Shown: piece after piece, positions 11,155 to 20,015 of the stretch
Position numbering within the stretch: the first letter of the stretch is position 1
Layout: every line of letters starts with the position of its first letter
Assembly: GCA_029939595.1 (NCBI GenBank)
Contig: JAOZSQ010000004.1
Coordinates: forward strand, 1,872 to 65,871
From: Thermoplasmatota archaeon
GTDB taxonomy: Archaea > Thermoplasmatota > E2 > DHVEG-1
Length of the DNA: 64,000 nt
Reading direction: 5' to 3'
Program-made: the position numbers and the translations under genes
Notes under the pieces: model-generated
Databases searched by the model: none
Told to the model about the DNA's origin: nothing
What the model saw: the letters and a program-made list of their open reading frames with translations, nothing else

Positions 11155-14100
11155 TTAATCCCATTTTCTTTGTTTCCAATCACGAGCAATAACAATGAAT
11201 GTAAGCATGAATACACTTACAATATAGATCATGTTATCTGGCATCATTGTCCCTTGATCAATGGTAAAGTTTTGATTTTGATTCTCTGCTAAATCATAGA
11301 TGTGCCAATCATAAAAAAATACATCTGCATAATATGATGCAACATCTGTCGATTCAATGATTACACCAACCTCTCTGTTTTTCATGATGGAATTTTCATT
11401 CCAATTAATGGAGGATATAAGGACTGTGTTATTATCAATGATCATTCCCTTGTTATGGATGTTTGAAAAGGGAGATGAGTTTGTATAAATAAACTGGGTT
11501 TGTATGCCATATTTTTCGAAGAGTTGTTTTGTTTCATTACATCTTATAATGGTGCTTTTGTAATAGGGATTATAGTTGAAGATTACCTTTATGTCAAGTC
11601 CTTGTTGTGCTTTTGTAATTAGTTCTTGAATCAAAGGGTTCATTTTTCCTTCCCACTCTGGATAGATGTAGAGTTGTTGAATATAGATGCTATGTTGTGC
11701 CTGTAGGATCATGGATTCAATGAGATGGAGGCTGGTATCTGGTGAGAAAACAGGCGTGATTGTTGCAGTTGAGTTGAGATATTTTGTAAGAAATGGATGT
11801 TCATATTTCCCATAGATTGTGGAAGCGCCCATATAGAAATCCGCAGGTATTGTGTGATTCAGGTTATGAAATGGGATAATATCGGGTCTGCTCTGATTGC
11901 AATCTAAATAAAAGATATTTGAAAGATATCTTGCAATACTTTGATTATGAATGATGATGCCCCATTCTCGGTTTCCAAATGAAGGGTGAACTGGAACACC
12001 AGTTTCTGCCCAGTTGCAACTTTCAATTATCAATGTTTCATTGTCAATGATTGCATATTTTGCATGATTGAACGAGTAACGAGAATATCTGTCTCTGCGG
12101 ATATCTTGTTTGATGAAGTAAATATCCGCGCCATATTCTGATAAACGATTCAAAATATAATATCCCTCATCTGAGATACCGCCAACAGGGGATCCTTCCA
12201 TTAGGATAGTGATGCTGACGTTTCTTTGTAAACAGTTGATGAGTTGGTTACAAAGATGCATGTTTGTGAATTCATACATGTTAATTTGAATACTAAAATC
12301 TGCTTTTTTAAGCACATCACTGATTGCTTGATAACTTGAATCAGGTGAAACAAATAATGATAAGGGATAATTTCCTTGAAATGAAAATGGTTTAAGGTCT
12401 GTTTGTCCAATAAAAAAGATCCTTGAATGATTAAAATCTTCCATTGTATTGGTATCAATATAGAAATTGTTTTCTTGCATTCTTTTATAGATCTGCCCGG
12501 GTGATCCAAGAGGTATTGATGATTGATTCCAATGGGTATGGTTATGAAATGATATATTTCCATAACAGATGAAATCAATGCTGTGATTGAAAATGTTTTT
12601 CAATGCAACCGCATCACCTGTATTGCCCATTGTAAAACTTGTTGATCCAATCATCTGAACAATATTCTCATTAGTGTTTTCTTTATATTCAAAATCAGCT
12701 TGAAACCCAGTTTGATTGTAGAATGATCCTGCTTTTTGTGTGATATATAAATGTGAGAAAGCTTTGATAAATGAGTTGTTTGGAAATTGAATAATACATT
12801 GGTCCTCATAATTTTTAAAAGGGGTATTTGTCAGATAAAATCCTGTGAGATTTATAGATATGTTACTTGGATTATAAATACTGAGATATTCATTTGCAAT
12901 TCCTGGGTAATTATGGTAATAAAACTCTGAGATGAGTAGTTGTTTTTCTATCTTTGTTGGTGATGTGTTTGTTATCGTAAATTCGATCTGATTTTCATTG
13001 TTGTATTCATCGAGTTCCTTAATATTTTCTTCATGATCTACAATTACATAAATAGTGTGTTTTCCAAGTGATAATCTACTTGTGTCAAGAAGAATGGAAG
13101 GATATTTTTGGTATTTTCCAATATCTTCATATGTTTTTGATCCAATGTAATGATTATCATCTATTGTATCACAGAAGAAAGAAACATAAACATTGCTTGC
13201 GTTTTTGTTTCCTGTGTTTTTACAATATGCTTTTATTTTCAGGTTTCTACCTTGTCCAATGGTATCAATTTCGTTCCAGTTGGAGTCATATGTTTTTATA
13301 TTTGGTATTGTAAGATCTGGTGCGATTATTTCAAATGAGAATGAATGTAGATCTTGACTGTCTAGATCTTTTTGAGATTGAATAAAAAGAAGAAGAGTTC
13401 CATGGCTGAATTCATTTCTTTGAATGCTACTTTGTGTTACTTTAATGCTTATGTTTTCATGGTGTTTACTTGTGATCTGGATGGTTTTTATGGAAGGTTT
13501 TGCATGCCATCCATGGCTGATATCTTCAATTTTTACCGTGTAAGTATCATTGAAATCTCCGGTATTTTCAATGGTGAGGGGAATAGTGATGCTTTTTTGT
13601 GGTTTTGTTTCAAATGATGATGTTTCTGTTTTGATGCGTGTGTTGTATTGACCTTGTGAGATTGTGATGTTATCTTTAATCATTATTTTTTGATTATTTT
13701 CGTTTAAAAAATAGAGTGTGTAGTTTGATCCAGTGGGACATGAGAGTTTTACAAATCCGTCTGTTGATGATAAACCTTCATTTATGGAGTTGTTTTCACT
13801 TGAATAAATGCTTAGGATTTCACTATTTTTGTTAGAAAGTAATAGTCGTTGATTCTGAGGTGGTGAGAGTTCATTTTCTGTGAGGGTGGTTACATAATAT
13901 CCACCTGGAATTGCGTTTTTTGTTGACGTGTCCATGTCCAAAAGATTTACTTCTTTATTGAATTCAGTGGTAATGGTTTTTTCCCGGATTTTAATATGAA
14001 AAAATGCTGTTTGTTGATGGGTGATGTATTCTTTGTATGTCTTGTAGTTGGTGTTGAATCTAAGATGTACCCATTGGGAATATGAGCCAGTTTCATTTGG

Positions 14101-14940
14101 GGTGATATTGAAAAGATATCTGTCTGAATATTGCCATTGGTTAAGGTCCCATGTTTGACTTGCAATAGAGTGAGTAGAATTATCTGCTTGGATGGCTACT
14201 TTCATTTCATAAAAATTACTACTACTGAAATTTTGAAGTTGTATTTGAATGGAGAATGGAAGGCTGTATGAGTCTGAGGTATATGCTTTTGGGATAAAAC
14301 TTGGAGCCATGGTGATGGAGATGTTTCCTTTTGATGTGTAAATATTCGTGTCACCGGGTGTTGGAGTATGTGTTTCTTTAAAATCGTTAATGCTGTTGTT
14401 TGTGTCTATAAATGTGGTTCTTATAATACTCATTGCTTCTTGAATACTTGGAATTGGTTCTCCTGGTATTTCAGGGTAATCTTCACCCCATTCAACACTA
14501 TCGACGTGGTATCCAGTTTGGTTTTTAAGGATGATCATATCGTTAAGGTTTCCAAGACCGTTTCCTATTGATAAATCATCAACAGTAAGAAGTAATATGT
14601 TGGATGGAATAGTTGTGTTGTTGTATAGCTCTGTTCCTTTATCTGTGATGATACAGTATTGATTTGAGGGTAGTATCATGCTATTATTGCCTATAATCAT
14701 GTATGGTTCAAGGGTGTCTGTTTGAAAGTTATCTGTAATTGTCCATTGACTCATGTTGATTGATTTGTTTGTAGGGTTGTATATTTCAATCCATTCATGG
14801 GTGTTATCGTTTTCAAGGGGATTGATCATGATTTCGTTAATGATTGGATTTGAATCGACTATGGGAGATTGAAATAAAATATATGTGAAAGCTAGGATAA
14901 AAATAAAAGTTTGGATGATGCTCCAGTTATTTGATGTCAT
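11155..14940 (-). CDS. Large exported phospholipase D-family protein with two lamin-tail domains, CARDB and C-terminal TM anchor
   Basis: Two HKD motifs (HAKYAIID, HNKGMIID); IINEIM..EWIEIYN and ISEFY..EYLSIYN LTD motifs; PDL...NTG...DELDEYNN CARDB; C-terminal TM. Confidence 0.85.
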   Translation of the reverse strand: MTSNNWSIIQTFIFILAFTYILFQSPIVDSNPIINEIMINPLENDNTHEWIEIYNPTNKSINMSQWTITDNFQTDTLEPYMIIGNNSMILPSNQYCIITDKGTELYNNTTIPSNILLLTVDDLSIGNGLGNLNDMIILKNQTGYHVDSVEWGEDYPEIPGEPIPSIQEAMSIIRTTFIDTNNSINDFKETHTPTPGDTNIYTSKGNISITMAPSFIPKAYTSDSYSLPFSIQIQLQNFSSSNFYEMKVAIQADNSTHSIASQTWDLNQWQYSDRYLFNITPNETGSYSQWVHLRFNTNYKTYKEYITHQQTAFFHIKIREKTITTEFNKEVNLLDMDTSTKNAIPGGYYVTTLTENELSPPQNQRLLLSNKNSEILSIYSSENNSINEGLSSTDGFVKLSCPTGSNYTLYFLNENNQKIMIKDNITISQGQYNTRIKTETSSFETKPQKSITIPLTIENTGDFNDTYTVKIEDISHGWHAKPSIKTIQITSKHHENISIKVTQSSIQRNEFSHGTLLLFIQSQKDLDSQDLHSFSFEIIAPDLTIPNIKTYDSNWNEIDTIGQGRNLKIKAYCKNTGNKNASNVYVSFFCDTIDDNHYIGSKTYEDIGKYQKYPSILLDTSRLSLGKHTIYVIVDHEENIKELDEYNNENQIEFTITNTSPTKIEKQLLISEFYYHNYPGIANEYLSIYNPSNISINLTGFYLTNTPFKNYEDQCIIQFPNNSFIKAFSHLYITQKAGSFYNQTGFQADFEYKENTNENIVQMIGSTSFTMGNTGDAVALKNIFNHSIDFICYGNISFHNHTHWNQSSIPLGSPGQIYKRMQENNFYIDTNTMEDFNHSRIFFIGQTDLKPFSFQGNYPLSLFVSPDSSYQAISDVLKKADFSIQINMYEFTNMHLCNQLINCLQRNVSITILMEGSPVGGISDEGYYILNRLSEYGADIYFIKQDIRRDRYSRYSFNHAKYAIIDNETLIIESCNWAETGVPVHPSFGNREWGIIIHNQSIARYLSNIFYLDCNQSRPDIIPFHNLNHTIPADFYMGASTIYGKYEHPFLTKYLNSTATITPVFSPDTSLHLIESMILQAQHSIYIQQLYIYPEWEGKMNPLIQELITKAQQGLDIKVIFNYNPYYKSTIIRCNETKQLFEKYGIQTQFIYTNSSPFSNIHNKGMIIDNNTVLISSINWNENSIMKNREVGVIIESTDVASYYADVFFYDWHIYDLAENQNQNFTIDQGTMMPDNMIYIVSVFMLTFIVIARDWKQRKWD

Positions 14941-15037
14941 TATGATTAAATCCCCTTAAATAAAACCCCCTTGAGGTAAAAAGTATTTATAAATATATCG
15001 TTAAAACAATAATAATACTTATTCTTAAAAAAATAAG

Positions 15038-15108
15038 AGGGCGGAGAGGGATTTGAACCCCCGTATGAGGATCTGCAGTCCCCCACATAGCCGCTTTGTT
15101 ACCCGCCC
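15038..15108 (-). tRNA. tRNA-Cys(GCA), intronless, CCA not encoded
   Basis: Reverse complement GGGCGGG..., anticodon arm GGGGA-CTGCAGA-TCCTC, T arm GGGGG-TTCAAAT-CCCTC, acceptor TCCGCCC plus U discriminator. Confidence 0.95.
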
Positions 15109-15400
15109 GAAAATAGTGGTTACCCTACCTAATGTAGGTTACCTACCCTATGCGTACCCCGTGAATTCAGTTCTTGGTTTTAATTCTTTTGGTTCAATTG
15201 CTCCTAATAATGCACTTAACAAATTGTGTGTAGGTCTTCGATTTAAAAAAAACGTTCCATTTGTTAGAGACATCTTTTTTTAAGCATTGTCATTGGATTA
15301 TAACAATCATTCAAAACATTATAATATTTAGATATATTTATATAATGATAATTACAATTATCCATAAGATAATACTATATTATAATTGAGGGTAAAAAAT

Positions 15401-16321
15401 ATGAAAAAGAAATCGAGTTTTTTGATAATAACACTCATAATTTTAGTTATGATTCTGCCAATAGTTACTGCAAATTTTAATAATGAAATACCAACCAATA
15501 ACTTTAGGAAAAATTCAATATTTGAAAAAATGACTGGTGGTTCCATCATGGATAATTTTGTCGAATTTCTAAAAAATTTTCCCTTTATAAATAAAACAAT
15601 TAACAGTATAAGAAATATTTTTGGGTTAGTAGAGGACAGTTCAGATGACCAAGAAGATGGCATTAATTATGAGCCATTTTATCAATCTGATACAAACGAT
15701 CCTAAATCATCAAAACCAACCGATACTAGTATTTCAGTTACAATTGAGGATTTTGATATAACTTATACAACAACAGACGATGATTTTGAATTTGATGTAT
15801 CATTTAATGGAAGAACCACAGGAAATGTCTATGCATGTTATTGGATAATTGTTTCTTATTTTAATGATGGGACTTGTAGCTATTATAACATGTGGAATGG
15901 CCCAAATCAAAAAGAAATTGAACTATCTGATACTTCTTTTGGATTAACATTCTTTGGAAAAGGTCCGGGTGGATATAGTGATTGGTCACGTTTTCAAGGC
16001 CATCAATATATGAAAGGAAAAATAGGAGATCAAGATGAAATCCCTGTTGAAATCGATAAAACTCCGGTTGAATCAGAGGAGATCACACTGGATATATATG
16101 TTGTTGATACTTTATTATATGTAAGAGCTTTTAGCGATAAAGAACTAACACAATGGAACCAAGATTCAATAAGCCTTTTTGATGAATTATCTGAAAGTAT
16201 GTACAATACTCCTCAGAGAAATCAGGGTGATGGACCTGGCAAAGGCACACCAGGTTTTGAAGTACTAACTCTTATTGCATCCTTAGGTATTGTAATAATT
16301 TTCATAAGAAAGAGAAAATAA
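15401..16321 (+). CDS. Exported acidic protein with PGF-CTERM archaeosortase sorting signal
   Basis: Signal peptide MKKKSSFLIITLIILVMILPIVTA; ends GTPGFEVLTLIASLGIVIIFIRKRK (PGF + TM + basic tail). Start moved from 15386 to ATG 15401. Confidence 0.85.
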   Translation: MKKKSSFLIITLIILVMILPIVTANFNNEIPTNNFRKNSIFEKMTGGSIMDNFVEFLKNFPFINKTINSIRNIFGLVEDSSDDQEDGINYEPFYQSDTNDPKSSKPTDTSISVTIEDFDITYTTTDDDFEFDVSFNGRTTGNVYACYWIIVSYFNDGTCSYYNMWNGPNQKEIELSDTSFGLTFFGKGPGGYSDWSRFQGHQYMKGKIGDQDEIPVEIDKTPVESEEITLDIYVVDTLLYVRAFSDKELTQWNQDSISLFDELSESMYNTPQRNQGDGPGKGTPGFEVLTLIASLGIVIIFIRKRK

Positions 16322-16407
16322 AATCAATGTTGATTGGAAGCATTTCCTCTAAAAAATTAAGTTGATCAAATATCTGGTTTAAACCTTAAAAAAATATTAG
16401 TTTTTCA

Positions 16408-17337
16408 TCAGGTTTCTTCTATCCAAATACCCGAACCAATGAAATGTAGTTTTTCTGCATTAAGATTCAATAAAAGAAATACTTCATCTTTTGTAAAACA
16501 AAATGGTTTATCTGCTGAAAAAGAGAGAGAATTATCTTTGATGTCTGTTATTGTTATTGGAATGGTCTGCATTCCAACAGTTACATGAAATTTTCCCTTT
16601 TCAACTGTCGGATAGAACTTGTTTTTTGAGAAATTAAGGGAAATATTCTGTTCAACTTGTGCACTTTCTGGTTTGCATAAAAACCTTCCTCTCACTAATT
16701 CGTCAATATGAGCACCTTTAATCGCTAAGCCCACTCTTGAGCCTGCTGCTGCTTCTTTTTCATCTTTATCCATCATCTGGATAGAACGGACAATGATCTC
16801 TTTTTTGTTAGGTAAAATATTAAGTTTATCATGAGTGTGAATTGTTCCTTGTTTAATGAATCCAAGAACAACTTCACCAATTCCTTTTACTGGAAATGAA
16901 TGATCAATGGTTACAATTGCTGGCAGGTCATGATCTTTATTAAGATTTATTTCCTGTATTTTTTCCATGATTTTATGAACATCTCTTTCTATGATTTCAA
17001 AATGATTCAGGGAAGTATCCTTAATCATTTCTTTAATTGAAGATGTATCAGAAAAAGCAGGGACAACAATGAATCCATACTTCAATTTCATTGCATCAAT
17101 CATTAACAGTGTTTCTCCAAAGGAAGGAGTAATATTTTCAGCAGATAATATTGCAGCATCAATGATGCCTAGGATCTGAGTTTTAACTGTTAGTTTATCA
17201 TCTACGGGATGAATGAAGGAATAAATTGAATCATCAAGTTTTCTGTGATAAAGAACCATGTCACTTTCCGTTGCTTTTTTCCCTAATTCTTCTGCAAGGG
17301 AGTTATCATGAAAAATTCCTATTGTTAACTGTTTCAT
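16408..17337 (-). CDS. SelB/EF-Tu-like protein with degenerate G domain (archaeal SelB-like family)
   Basis: EF-Tu domain II motifs IDHSFPVKGIGEVVLG, VRSIQM, GSRVGLAIKG; N-terminus ELGKKATESD lacks a full P-loop. Confidence 0.8.
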   Translation of the reverse strand: MKQLTIGIFHDNSLAEELGKKATESDMVLYHRKLDDSIYSFIHPVDDKLTVKTQILGIIDAAILSAENITPSFGETLLMIDAMKLKYGFIVVPAFSDTSSIKEMIKDTSLNHFEIIERDVHKIMEKIQEINLNKDHDLPAIVTIDHSFPVKGIGEVVLGFIKQGTIHTHDKLNILPNKKEIIVRSIQMMDKDEKEAAAGSRVGLAIKGAHIDELVRGRFLCKPESAQVEQNISLNFSKNKFYPTVEKGKFHVTVGMQTIPITITDIKDNSLSFSADKPFCFTKDEVFLLLNLNAEKLHFIGSGIWIEET

Positions 17338-17421
17338 AAGGACTGCATCGCTGTCTTTTACATAAAAGTATTCATTAAAAACGATATTTTTGTATGATAT
17401 TATCCAGTGAAATATATGTGA

Positions 17422-18939
17422 TTACTGGTTAGGTTGACTAATTGGCTGCCAATCAAACTCAATCCAGGGTAAAAAAAGTCCAATAATGTTTCCATTTGGG
17501 AAATACATTAGACCTGGAATTAGTTTTACAGGGCCATTTAAATCGTCCCAGTAATTCTGCCTCCATGTGTTAGAGGCAAGGAAACCTATCTTACATAGTT
17601 TTGTAAATTTTGCTTGCTCATCATTTTCAATAAAATTATTGTTTTCAATTAGGTTCTTTATAGAATAAGAACAAAACATTCCTCTTCCATTATCAACCAG
17701 GTCATTTAAAGAGATATGATTTTGATTTCCTTCTTCAACATAAATACCAGTTGAACATTTTGTTATTAAGTTAGATTTAACAACATTTTCATTGCTTCTA
17801 AAAACATAAATCCCTGAGTGAGATGATTCAATATTATTGTTTATTATGGTATTGTAGCTTCCATGTAATACTTCAATACCTGCAAAAAGAAAGTCTCCAT
17901 TAATAGTAACTTGTTTGATTGTATTGTCCGACCCATCAACATAGATTGCACTTCGTTGTTGTGTTTCTGAGACAATATTGATGTTTGTAATAGTACAATG
18001 ATTGCTGTTTATTGTTTTGATTATGTTTAATCGTTCATCATTATTGCATAAAAAAGTAAGGTTTTGAATTGATGAGAAATGTGCTGAATCTAAAAATAAA
18101 TATTCGGAAGGATTACTCGCTGATATAATTGTGCTTTCTTTATCTTGACCATTAAGATTAATGGCTTTATCTATCTGAATATTCTCATCATATGTTCCAG
18201 AATAAACAAACACAGTGTCATATTCATATGCTATGTCAATAGCATCTTGTATGTATCTAAAAGGAAAAGACTCTGATCCATCCCATGGGCCATCAATATT
18301 GTCATCATCAACAAAGATTGTGTTCTGTGGAAAAACAAAGACTTCATTGATAATAACCTCTTCAACAGGCCAATCATCCATTCTATGTTTTCTCATGGTT
18401 TCAACAGATGCAATATCTCTAATAACCTCAATTCCCTCAATTACAATACCAAAAACTGCATAGTTATCATCTAAAAACGATTGAGGACCATCACAAATAA
18501 AAAATTGACTAGTAGCACTATTAGGGTCATTTGTTCGAGCCATACTAATAGCCCCATCAACATGACGTGCATCAGGATGAATCTCCAGATCAATTGTACC
18601 AAGAGGACTTTTCGTATATGAGCCATTAACATCAAATCCTCCACCTTGAATCATAAAATCATCAATAACTCGATGAAAAACAAGTCCATTAAAAAAACCG
18701 ATATTTGCTAATTCAACAAAATTATTTACAGTTACTGGTGCAAGATCATCATAAAAAGCAAGCTTTATTGTTCCCATATTTGTATGCATAACTGCTATTG
18801 TTTGATCAAGGGAGCTAGATTGTTGATATGAGCTTTGTACTTGTGAAAGGCTACTTATTGAGGGAAGTAACAAGATAGCAACAATTAAAAAAATAAAGGT
18901 ATGAAATAGCTGTTTTTTTGAAATTATATCTGCATTCAT
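17422..18939 (-). CDS. Exported cyclophilin-type PPIase fused to a NosD/pectin-lyase-like beta-helix
   Basis: FHRVIDDFMIQGGG, ISMART..PNSATSQFFI, YAVFG; then VDDDN...IQDAID...GTYDENI and Asn-rich repeats. Confidence 0.85.
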   Translation of the reverse strand: MNADIISKKQLFHTFIFLIVAILLLPSISSLSQVQSSYQQSSSLDQTIAVMHTNMGTIKLAFYDDLAPVTVNNFVELANIGFFNGLVFHRVIDDFMIQGGGFDVNGSYTKSPLGTIDLEIHPDARHVDGAISMARTNDPNSATSQFFICDGPQSFLDDNYAVFGIVIEGIEVIRDIASVETMRKHRMDDWPVEEVIINEVFVFPQNTIFVDDDNIDGPWDGSESFPFRYIQDAIDIAYEYDTVFVYSGTYDENIQIDKAINLNGQDKESTIISASNPSEYLFLDSAHFSSIQNLTFLCNNDERLNIIKTINSNHCTITNINIVSETQQRSAIYVDGSDNTIKQVTINGDFLFAGIEVLHGSYNTIINNNIESSHSGIYVFRSNENVVKSNLITKCSTGIYVEEGNQNHISLNDLVDNGRGMFCSYSIKNLIENNNFIENDEQAKFTKLCKIGFLASNTWRQNYWDDLNGPVKLIPGLMYFPNGNIIGLFLPWIEFDWQPISQPNQ

Positions 18940-19035
18940 TCAAATATTCTCCTAAATTAATAATAATTTATCATAATATAAATCTATCTCATTAAATATG
19001 TAAATTGAGGCAAAAGGATATATTTCTGATAAAAT

Positions 19036-19740
19036 TTACATCAAGAAAGGAAGAATAACAATACTAAAAAAACGATTAGTACCATGTAATACCCATGCTC
19101 CAACAAGATTTTTTGATCTTCGACAGATTTCAATTGTTAAAAAACCCTGTACAATTGTACTGATTATAAATGGGCTAGTAAAATTTTGAGGATGCATTAA
19201 AACAAAACTTGCTAATGAAGTAACATATGCAATTTTTAAATTTGTTTTTCTTACTAAAAAGATAAATAATATTCCACGGAAAAAGAATTCTTCTGTAAAT
19301 GACTCAACAAAACTTACTACGCCTAATGGATAGTTTGAAACAAGAGCACCACCAATTATAAATTTTGCTAAAAAAGTAACTGTTAACATTATTGGAAGAA
19401 AAAGAAAACCAAGTTTCAGGCTTTTTTCAAATCCTTTTTCTGTGATTCCAAATTGTTTAAATGAATAATCTTTCTTTTTTTTCTTTGGTTTATTTTTTAA
19501 TTTCCAGGTGACAAATAAGACTATTAATGGAAGAAATACAAATAACAAAAATTTAGTGACAATATTGGCTGTTGAATTAAAACCATTTGTTAACGGCCAA
19601 TATGCAATTACAATAAAGACCATAGTAAAAAATATTGCACTAATTTCACCAATTGATCCTCGTTTATATTTCGCTGAATAAATAATAGGAATAAGCATGG
19701 GAATAAGCATAGGCCATAAAAAGAAATCAAAATAAACCAT
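19036..19740 (-). CDS. CPBP/CAAX intramembrane metalloprotease
   Basis: EEFFFRG, FVLMH and HGTNR motifs in a multi-TM protein. Confidence 0.85.
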   Translation of the reverse strand: MVYFDFFLWPMLIPMLIPIIYSAKYKRGSIGEISAIFFTMVFIVIAYWPLTNGFNSTANIVTKFLLFVFLPLIVLFVTWKLKNKPKKKKKDYSFKQFGITEKGFEKSLKLGFLFLPIMLTVTFLAKFIIGGALVSNYPLGVVSFVESFTEEFFFRGILFIFLVRKTNLKIAYVTSLASFVLMHPQNFTSPFIISTIVQGFLTIEICRRSKNLVGAWVLHGTNRFFSIVILPFLM

Positions 19741-20015
19741 TTATCTCTCACCAAAAAACAATTATAACCTTGTTATAAAAAAAGTTTTCCTTCACTTCTG
19801 AAAATGAAAATATCACTCACAAGTCATGGAAAAATTAAATTAGAAAAATTCTAACCTTTTCCAATCTGTATTTATAAGGATATTCAAATAAATATGATCT
19901 TTTGAATTGCTTTTAGTGATTAGAAATATTATGAAAGTTGTAAAATATTTATTTTAATAATATTCACCATAGTTAATTAAATGAGATGTTTTTTAACCAT
20001 ATCTCTACTTGGAAC

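Follow-up and report, generated by a model that had tools for sequence, protein, structure and literature searches.

A divergent SelB-like protein without a P-loop in a Thermoplasmatota archaeon and its very probably unrelated tRNA-Cys neighbor

A stretch of 64,000 nucleotides of a Thermoplasmatota genome (GenBank assembly GCA_029939595.1, contig JAOZSQ010000004.1, positions 1,872 to 65,871; the whole of it is called the window below) contains the gene of an archaeal SelB-like protein (aSelBL) and, 1.3 kb away, a gene for tRNA-Cys(GCA). We consider it very probable that the protein is a divergent aSelBL that has lost its P-loop and that the nearby tRNA-Cys gene is an unrelated neighbor rather than a conserved partner. 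The aSelBL open reading frame (ORF) at 16408-17337 on the minus strand is intact and encodes 309 amino acids. The tRNA-Cys gene, located at 15037-15108 on the minus strand, was the sole tRNA gene called by ARAGORN in the window, and Rfam model RF00005 matched the same site (15038-15108, minus strand) with 52.7 bits. It has the U73 discriminator expected for tRNA-Cys, and CCA is not encoded. The first-pass annotation of the window, which had described a SelB-like gene with a degenerate G domain and a tRNA-Cys gene on the same strand, was thus right about both genes. Their gap of 1,299 nt is filled by one ORF on the plus strand (15386-16321, 311 amino acids) with a signal peptide and a PGF/Loki-CTERM-type sorting tail, as found in secreted or surface proteins. 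aSelBL converges on this ORF, with the two stop codons 86 nt apart, and tRNA-Cys diverges from it. Because of this opposite-strand ORF, aSelBL and tRNA-Cys do not form one transcription unit.

The only Pfam match of the 309-residue protein was GTP_EFTU_D2 (PF03144, EF-Tu domain 2) with an E-value of 3e-12. Among the NCBIfam models, TIGR00475 (selB) matched best, but its score of 74.9 bits stayed below the cut-off of 242.25 and the alignment covered only model positions 157-318 of 581. The best sequence match in the PDB was MM1309 of Methanosarcina mazei (3WNB/3WNC/3WND; E 7.6e-27), followed by archaeal SelB (E 2e-16) and then by eEFSec and EF-Tu. An AlphaFold2 model based on an alignment of 81 family members reached a pLDDT of 97.4 and a pTM of 0.93 and consisted of a G-like domain and two beta-barrels. 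Its top match in Foldseek was again 3wnb (E 9.2e-28, TMq 0.85), which makes MM1309, the protein named in the first-pass annotation, the closest structure by sequence as well as by fold. Since the model gave TMq values of 0.80-0.86 with the GTP forms of EF-Tu, aIF2-gamma, and SelB and of only about 0.51 with GDP-form EF-Tu, the modelled protein is in the closed, tRNA-binding shape.

The family comprised 2,058 cluster representatives at E ≤ 0.001, nearly all with a length of 295-350 amino acids, and the relatives of the window protein have 300-320. The closest matches are labeled either "EF-Tu/IF-2/RF-3 family GTPase" (Thermoplasmatota metagenome-assembled genomes, MAGs) or "selenocysteine-specific elongation factor" (JGI). 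aSelBL genes occurred in 167 of the 251 genomes sampled from the phylum, in 143 of 151 genomes of the sampled class that includes ANME-2/Methanosarcinales MAGs, and in 31 of 151 Thermoproteota genomes. The window protein consists of domains I-III only and lacks the C-terminal domain IV extension that binds the selenocysteine insertion sequence (SECIS). Together with the properties of the G domain and the aminoacyl pocket described below, this places it in the divergent aSelBL clade of the MM1309/aEF-X family (Atkinson et al., 2011; PMC3037878). It shows every sequence and structure feature by which divergent aSelBL proteins are recognized, but it does not qualify as a true SelB or as a member of the GTP-binding subtype of MM1309.

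In MM1309, the P-loop (Gly7-Thr15, ending in KSGRT) contacts the phosphates of GTP, and switch I extends from Gly22 to Ile30 (PMC4329189). We compared the G domain of the window protein with that of Methanosarcina-type proteins taken from genomes (L178, L179, L181). In the alignment, GIFHD-----NSLAEELGKKAT of the window protein stands opposite GTEKSGRTSLAANLGKKGT of the Methanosarcina-type proteins. At the P-loop site five residues are deleted: GIFHDN (residues 7-12; 17302-17319, minus strand) takes the place of GTEKSGRT, and neither a GK[ST] motif nor the KSGRT of the MM1309 type is retained. The same gap was found in most of the 81 aligned family members, and Gly7, Phe9, His10, and Asp11 are invariant in 26 close relatives. 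Judged from these sequences, the remnant of the P-loop site is under selection for something, and classical GTP binding is very unlikely.

The first-pass annotation had taken LGKK for a reduced P-loop, which turned out to be a misassignment. LGKK is part of LGKKATESD (residues 18-26; 17260-17286, minus strand), the window version of the family-wide motif LGKKGT-xSD, and aligns with Leu21-Lys24 of MM1309, i.e. with the start of switch I; the true P-loop is the part that was deleted. Of the 81 family members, at least 90% have Lys20 and Asp26 of this motif. The equivalent of switch I/G2 was described as KGTXX in 2011 (PMC3037878), and with LGKKAT at residues 18-23 the window protein likewise has a KGT motif in place of G2. 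Where switch II normally has its catalytic His, the alignment shows Asp47 (17197-17199, minus strand), which corresponds to Tyr50 of MM1309. Two further gaps of 9 and 18 columns follow after the FSDT region in the comparison with the Methanosarcina-type proteins. Divergent aSelBL proteins were defined by a deletion of 4-5 residues in G1 and a further deletion of 10-14 residues in the G domain, as compared with conservative aSelBL and aSelB (PMC3037878). The proposal of the first-pass annotation that the protein might work without GTP therefore survives in part: GTP independence is plausible given the deletion of the P-loop, and not for the reason that the P-loop shrank to LGKK.

The SelB-type aminoacyl pocket, composed of Asp-His, Arg, and an aromatic lid, is kept in the window protein. 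Asp145-His146 (16900-16905, minus strand) correspond to Asp191-His192 of aSelB from Methanococcus maripaludis (PMC3037878); Asp145 is invariant in the 81 sequences and His146 is present. At least 90% of the 81 sequences share Arg201 (16735-16737, minus strand), the equivalent of Arg247 of aSelB. Tyr30 (17248-17250, minus strand), which corresponds to Tyr33 of MM1309 and lies in the family consensus SDIxxYN, is a candidate for the lid. A protein of this kind might be held permanently in the closed, "GTP-like" shape and could bind the 3' end of an aminoacylated tRNA with no need for a nucleotide. In the bound state it would shield the labile ester bond or the side chain, and it would possibly hand the tRNA on to the ribosome. 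Among the possible clients, Cys-tRNACys ranks first, although it is somewhat less probable than not and is favored solely by the homology to MM1309 and the SelB-type pocket. The binding of Cys-tRNACys by MM1309, which the first-pass annotation had cited, is indeed reported (PMC4329189).

The position of the tRNA-Cys gene contributes nothing to this assignment, as became evident from a survey of aSelBL loci. We collected loci from 80 GTDB species representatives with flanks of up to 10 kb, from 19 relatives ranging from the same genus to the same class, and from metagenome contigs with the closest orthologs, and added 50 loci from the class with ANME-2/Methanosarcinales MAGs, 30 from Thermoproteota, and 40 from further Thermoplasmatota families. 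After de-duplication, 213 distinct loci of three archaeal phyla with 1.90 Mb of flanking sequence remained, 200 of which had at least 1.4 kb downstream of aSelBL. The flanks were searched for tRNA genes with ARAGORN, allowing introns. No tRNA-Cys was present among the 59 tRNAs found in the flanks of these 213 loci. With one tRNA-Cys gene per genome of about 2.2 Mb and random placement, about 0.9 would be expected by chance, and with the window included, one case in 214 loci is the chance level. Hence, tRNA-Cys is not enriched beside aSelBL. Some tRNA gene was located within 2 kb of aSelBL at 35 of the 213 loci. A general enrichment of tRNA genes at this site was also considered and rejected, as 18 of 196 loci (9%) remain when the cases with tRNA(CAU) are set aside, which is about the background.

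The linkage was already absent in the closest relatives. In three contigs with orthologs of 85-86% identity, no tRNA-Cys was found near aSelBL within the available downstream sequence of at least 5.9 kb. Where tRNA-Cys would sit, a radical-SAM gene follows the 84% identical ortholog and a peptidase M32 gene the orthologs of 68-69% identity. In each of five genomes of the same genus, tRNA-Cys and aSelBL were located on different contigs; the tRNA-Cys genes were 92-99% identical to that of the window, the fifth being a partial match. The claim that the linkage supports a dedicated role in Cys-tRNA binding, protection, or delivery, for which a synteny survey had been suggested as a check, therefore failed this check. 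In all five genomes (L108-L112), tRNA-Cys is found within about 100 nt just upstream of an ortholog of a gene for a large protein with LTD, CARDB, and PLD domains (Pfam). In the window this gene occupies 11155-14940, on the minus strand like tRNA-Cys, and begins 97 nt behind it. Because of this adjacency in five of five same-genus genomes, it is the PLD-like gene and not aSelBL that accompanies tRNA-Cys as a conserved partner. tRNA-Cys is a transcription unit of its own that belongs with the PLD-like gene and is split from aSelBL by a gene on the opposite strand.

The gene order around aSelBL suggests how the two genes came to lie near each other. In genomes of the same genus, the order is a block of genes found on contig C4 of the genome studied here, tRNA(CAT), aSelBL, and a block of genes found on its contig C86. 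In the genome studied here, the corresponding tRNA(CAT) gene is still located on C4 (20765-20841), and aSelBL is elsewhere. In the window, aSelBL follows a gene for a cyclophilin and beta-helix protein (17422-18939, minus strand) located upstream of it, a pairing shared with the orthologs of 68-69% identity. Synteny with these relatives stops right after the stop codon of aSelBL, and the gene order around aSelBL varies even among relatives of 85% identity. The surface-protein ORF of the window has no homolog beside tRNA-Cys or aSelBL in the relatives. Because synteny breaks immediately downstream of aSelBL in the comparison with both the 69% and the 85% relatives, we infer that the proximity of tRNA-Cys is the product of a recent breakpoint or rearrangement confined to this strain or species. 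aSelBL orthologs of GTDB genomes of the same genus were only 47-58% identical to the window protein, and the aSelBL locus as a whole evolves fast and is frequently rearranged. A function of tRNA-Cys as integration attachment site was rejected: the genome holds no partial copies of tRNA-Cys elsewhere, and similarity to other tRNAs was confined to the T-loop.

The genome is a MAG of 2.64 Mb with a GC content of 32% and a completeness of 93%, and sequencing runs that contain the DNA of the window came from marine sediment and hydrothermal vents. As had been recommended in the first-pass annotation, we searched for the enzymes of cysteinyl-tRNA synthesis. CysRS is present (547 bits). SepRS (best score 54.7 bits, cut-off 380), SepCysS (22.8 bits, cut-off 365), and SelD (20.6 bits, cut-off 125) were not found in the 93%-complete genome. 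Neither did any protein exceed the cut-off of TIGR00475 for true SelB, nor did ARAGORN call a tRNA-Sec at this completeness. McrA gave no match in the 93%-complete genome, in line with the presumed non-methanogenic nature of the organism. A true SelB was therefore rejected as an identity of the protein on account of its TIGR00475 score and of SelD and tRNA-Sec not having been found, and a partner of the SepRS/SepCysS pathway was rejected given that both enzymes scored below their cut-offs and a canonical CysRS is present.

The proposal that selection keeps aSelBL and tRNA-Cys together, with the protein as a dedicated factor for binding, protection, or delivery of Cys-tRNACys, is very improbable. 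The orientation of the two genes on the same strand at a distance of 1.3 kb, the protection of Cys-tRNACys from hydrolysis by MM1309, and the conserved SelB-type pocket would all agree with it, but none of the 213 other loci shows the linkage, which is lost already at 84-86% protein identity, an opposite-strand gene lies between the two genes, and the conserved partner of tRNA-Cys is a different one. Still less probable is an assembly artefact, i.e. a chimeric contig that joins a block with tRNA-Cys to a block with aSelBL. Such an origin could be suspected from Logan unitigs that break inside the tRNA gene (at about 15063) and near 16433-16462, and from alternative junctions at 16396/16404 in sequencing runs X1-X3. 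However, a Logan contig of run X1 with a length of 1,400 nt spans 15063-16462 with no differences and runs from the 5' part of tRNA-Cys through the surface-protein ORF into the last 54 nt of aSelBL, although this contig is not independent support, as X1 is possibly the source sample. Its depth of 15.9 is like that of its neighbors (16.5 and 16.8). The alternative junctions, with a 9-nt duplication and inverted ends, resemble an insertion and not another gene order.

Two further alternatives concern the client of the protein. It might act on the AUA-decoding tRNA-Ile2(CAU), or more generally on tRNAs with a CAU anticodon and the discrimination between Met and Ile, and not on tRNA-Cys. In many relatives of the same genus (L010:9871-9945, L017, L042, L069, L186-L189), aSelBL is preceded at a distance of 51-57 nt by a non-initiator tRNA(CAT) gene on the same strand; in three ANME-2/Methanosarcinales MAGs (L083, L086, L087) this distance is about 610-660 nt. 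tRNA(CAT) accounts for 17 of the 39 tRNAs within 2 kb of aSelBL. By elimination this tRNA is tRNA-Ile2, as an initiator and an intron-containing elongator tRNA-Met are also present in the genome and TiaS is encoded; moreover, the third CAT tRNA of the genome resembles tRNA-Ile(GAT). In Thaumarchaeota, a MetRS gene upstream of aSelBL was noted by Atkinson et al. (2011; PMC3037878). On the other hand, the tRNA(CAT) neighbor has only two independent origins, with five parsimony changes on the tree, mostly losses, and is absent from about 190 other loci in all, including 50 other loci of the class that contains ANME-2, 30 of Thermoproteota, and 40 of other Thermoplasmatota families. tRNA(CAT) is also absent from the 64-kb window, a tRNA gene 55 nt in front of a protein gene could reflect mere compact gene order, and the pocket is of the SelB/Cys type. 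A role of aSelBL in tRNA-Ile2 metabolism is therefore improbable, and the upstream tRNA(CAT) is a weak lead. MetRS can mischarge tRNA-Ile2(CAU) before agmatidine is added. One form of this idea, which we regard as just as improbable, is that aSelBL is a nucleotide-independent tRNA chaperone whose client in some lineages would be tRNA-Ile2(CAU), which it might for instance hold or screen; it arises from the upstream tRNA(CAU), the adjacency to MetRS in Thaumarchaeota, and the fact that Cys-tRNACys is the only aminoacyl-tRNA ever assayed.

The authors of the MM1309 study proposed a general back-up elongation factor ("aEF-X") for many aminoacyl-tRNAs, e.g. under conditions in which aEF1A is oxidized. 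For the window protein we consider this unlikely, although not to the same degree as a role with tRNA-Ile2. Docking suggested that the pocket fits all 20 amino acids, and no aminoacyl-tRNA besides Cys-tRNACys was assayed in that study (PMC4329189); furthermore, the patches of domain II that contact the ribosome were reported to be conserved (PMC3037878), and the family is widespread. However, the divergent members possess neither P-loop nor catalytic His, and for this reason a ribosome-triggered GTP hydrolysis and release in the manner of EF-Tu cannot work as known. In addition, an Asp-His/Arg pocket of the SelB type that is so strictly conserved points to one particular side chain. An "EF-Pyl" function was rejected as well: the "tRNA-Pyl(cta)" called by ARAGORN is an ordinary cloverleaf whose CCA is encoded, and it is located on the foreign-looking contig C32 described below.

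Several points weigh against the reading of the window protein as a P-loop-less aSelBL beside an unrelated tRNA-Cys. For one pre-specified pair of genes in a 2.2-Mb genome, the prior of a gap of at most 1.3 kb is only about 0.12%, and as the sole family member tested binds Cys-tRNACys (PMC4329189), the coincidence with just this tRNA is notable. The survey is a sample in which about 90 loci had flanks of only 1.5 kb, and atypical tRNA-Cys genes may escape ARAGORN. With respect to the protein, we infer that it is independent of nucleotide, closed in conformation, and able to bind tRNA, and the closed shape of the AlphaFold2 model may merely reproduce that of 3WNB. Finally, Asp97 (17047-17049, minus strand) corresponds to Asp103 of MM1309, the guanine-binding Asp, in a HMMER alignment that ends with residue 97 of the query opposite residue 123 of the chain (numbering shifted by +20 due to the tag). 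Asp97 is near-invariant among the 26 close relatives, though not across the 81-member alignment, and its retention in the close clade may indicate that some contact with a nucleotide or base persists.

aSelBL is a widespread paralog of translation factors that was described 15 years ago; the literature found on the family consists of primary papers from 2011 and 2015 and one survey from 2015. Both the degeneration of the G domain and the Cys-tRNA hypothesis have been in print since 2011 (PMC3037878). New in the first-pass annotation was the linkage to tRNA-Cys, and this claim is unsupported. A conserved link to a tRNA gene would have been the first in-genome pointer to the client of aSelBL; the link to tRNA-Cys is not such a pointer, and this synteny should not serve as support. 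As a consequence of its lack of conservation, the Cys hypothesis is left with homology and an assay with a single substrate.

Further observations concern sequence variation and other elements of the locus. Contigs of runs X2 and X3, and of a minor strain in X1, are about 99% identical to the window but part from it in both directions at 16396-16404, between the surface-protein ORF and aSelBL; the strains in X2 and X3 have extra DNA at this point. The two flanks have 9 nt in common, and an inverted TGAACCTTTAAGG is found at both loose ends, which suggests an insertion polymorphism of the insertion sequence (IS) or miniature inverted-repeat transposable element (MITE) type in close strains of other samples. 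Within the surface-protein ORF, contigs of X1 and X2 carry 326 unrelated letters in place of 341 nt at 15771-16113, which is a variable cassette in this PGF/Loki-CTERM-type protein. Just upstream of tRNA-Cys, at 15109-15165 on the minus strand, two near-copies of TAGG(G)TAGG(G)TAACC flank a small hairpin (GTAGG-TAA-CCTAC) and may represent a promoter or regulatory element. An E-value search of positions 13000-20000 with Rfam revealed no structured RNA besides tRNA-Cys, and scans for promoters and terminators gave results at the level of shuffled sequence with models of bacterial type, which are ill-suited to an archaeon.

Elsewhere in the assembly, contig C32 (427 kb) has a GC content of 32.9%, like the rest of the bin, and contains about 35 tRNA genes, with CCA encoded in those inspected. 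It also holds a tRNA with a CTA anticodon, which reads amber codons, a bacterial-type EF-Tu of 399 amino acids, and the second tRNA-Cys of the assembly, the gene in the window being the only archaeal tRNA-Cys found. C32 looks foreign and may be a huge phage or a mis-binned contig. The genome also has aEF1A-like and aIF2-gamma-like genes. On contig C45 (5133-6897), the intron-containing elongator tRNA-Met(CAT) lies about 400 nt behind the aIF2-gamma-like gene, so that another translational GTPase adjoins a tRNA gene in the same genome.

Among known systems, the divergent aSelBL proteins described by Atkinson, Hauryliuk, and Tenson (2011; PMC3037878) are the closest counterpart. Like these, the window protein has about 300 residues, three EF-Tu-type domains, no SECIS-binding extension, a deletion of 4-5 residues in G1, KGT in place of RGITI, no catalytic His, and an Asp-His/Arg pocket with an aromatic lid. 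Divergent aSelBL is known from non-methanogens of the Thermoplasmata type without selenocysteine (Sec) and pyrrolysine (Pyl) machinery, and both Cys-tRNA binding and a possible independence of GTP were proposed in the same study. Its analysis of genomic context dealt with protein-coding neighbors, and tRNA genes were not mentioned. Nothing essential differs from the published proteins; particular to the clade of the window protein are the invariant GIFHD at the former P-loop and the retained Asp97.

The window protein resembles MM1309, also known as "EF-Pyl" or aEF-X, in its closed three-domain shape and its LGKKGT switch-I motif, and both proteins have lost the catalytic His. MM1309 is a "conservative" aSelBL which keeps the P-loop (GxxKSGRT) and binds GTP with a dissociation constant of 0.43 μM, whereas the P-loop of the window protein is deleted and its G domain is about 40 residues shorter. 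The biochemical data were all obtained with MM1309: its closed structure is the same whether GMPPNP, GDP, or no nucleotide (apo form) is bound, no GTPase activity was detectable, and Cys-tRNACys had a half-life of 300 min in its presence instead of 80 min (PMC4329189). Archaeal SelB of M. maripaludis (4AC9/4ACB) is homologous in domains I-III (E 2e-16, TMq 0.80-0.86) and has the same pocket residues, but it differs by its intact G1-G5 motifs, its domain IV, and its partners tRNA-Sec, SelD, PSTK, and SepSecS; in the genome studied here, tRNA-Sec and SelD were not found, and PSTK and SepSecS were not searched for. EF-Tu, aEF1A, and aIF2-gamma resemble the window protein in the overall fold and the domain II barrel (PF03144) and differ from it in being canonical GTPases with general or initiator tRNA specificity.

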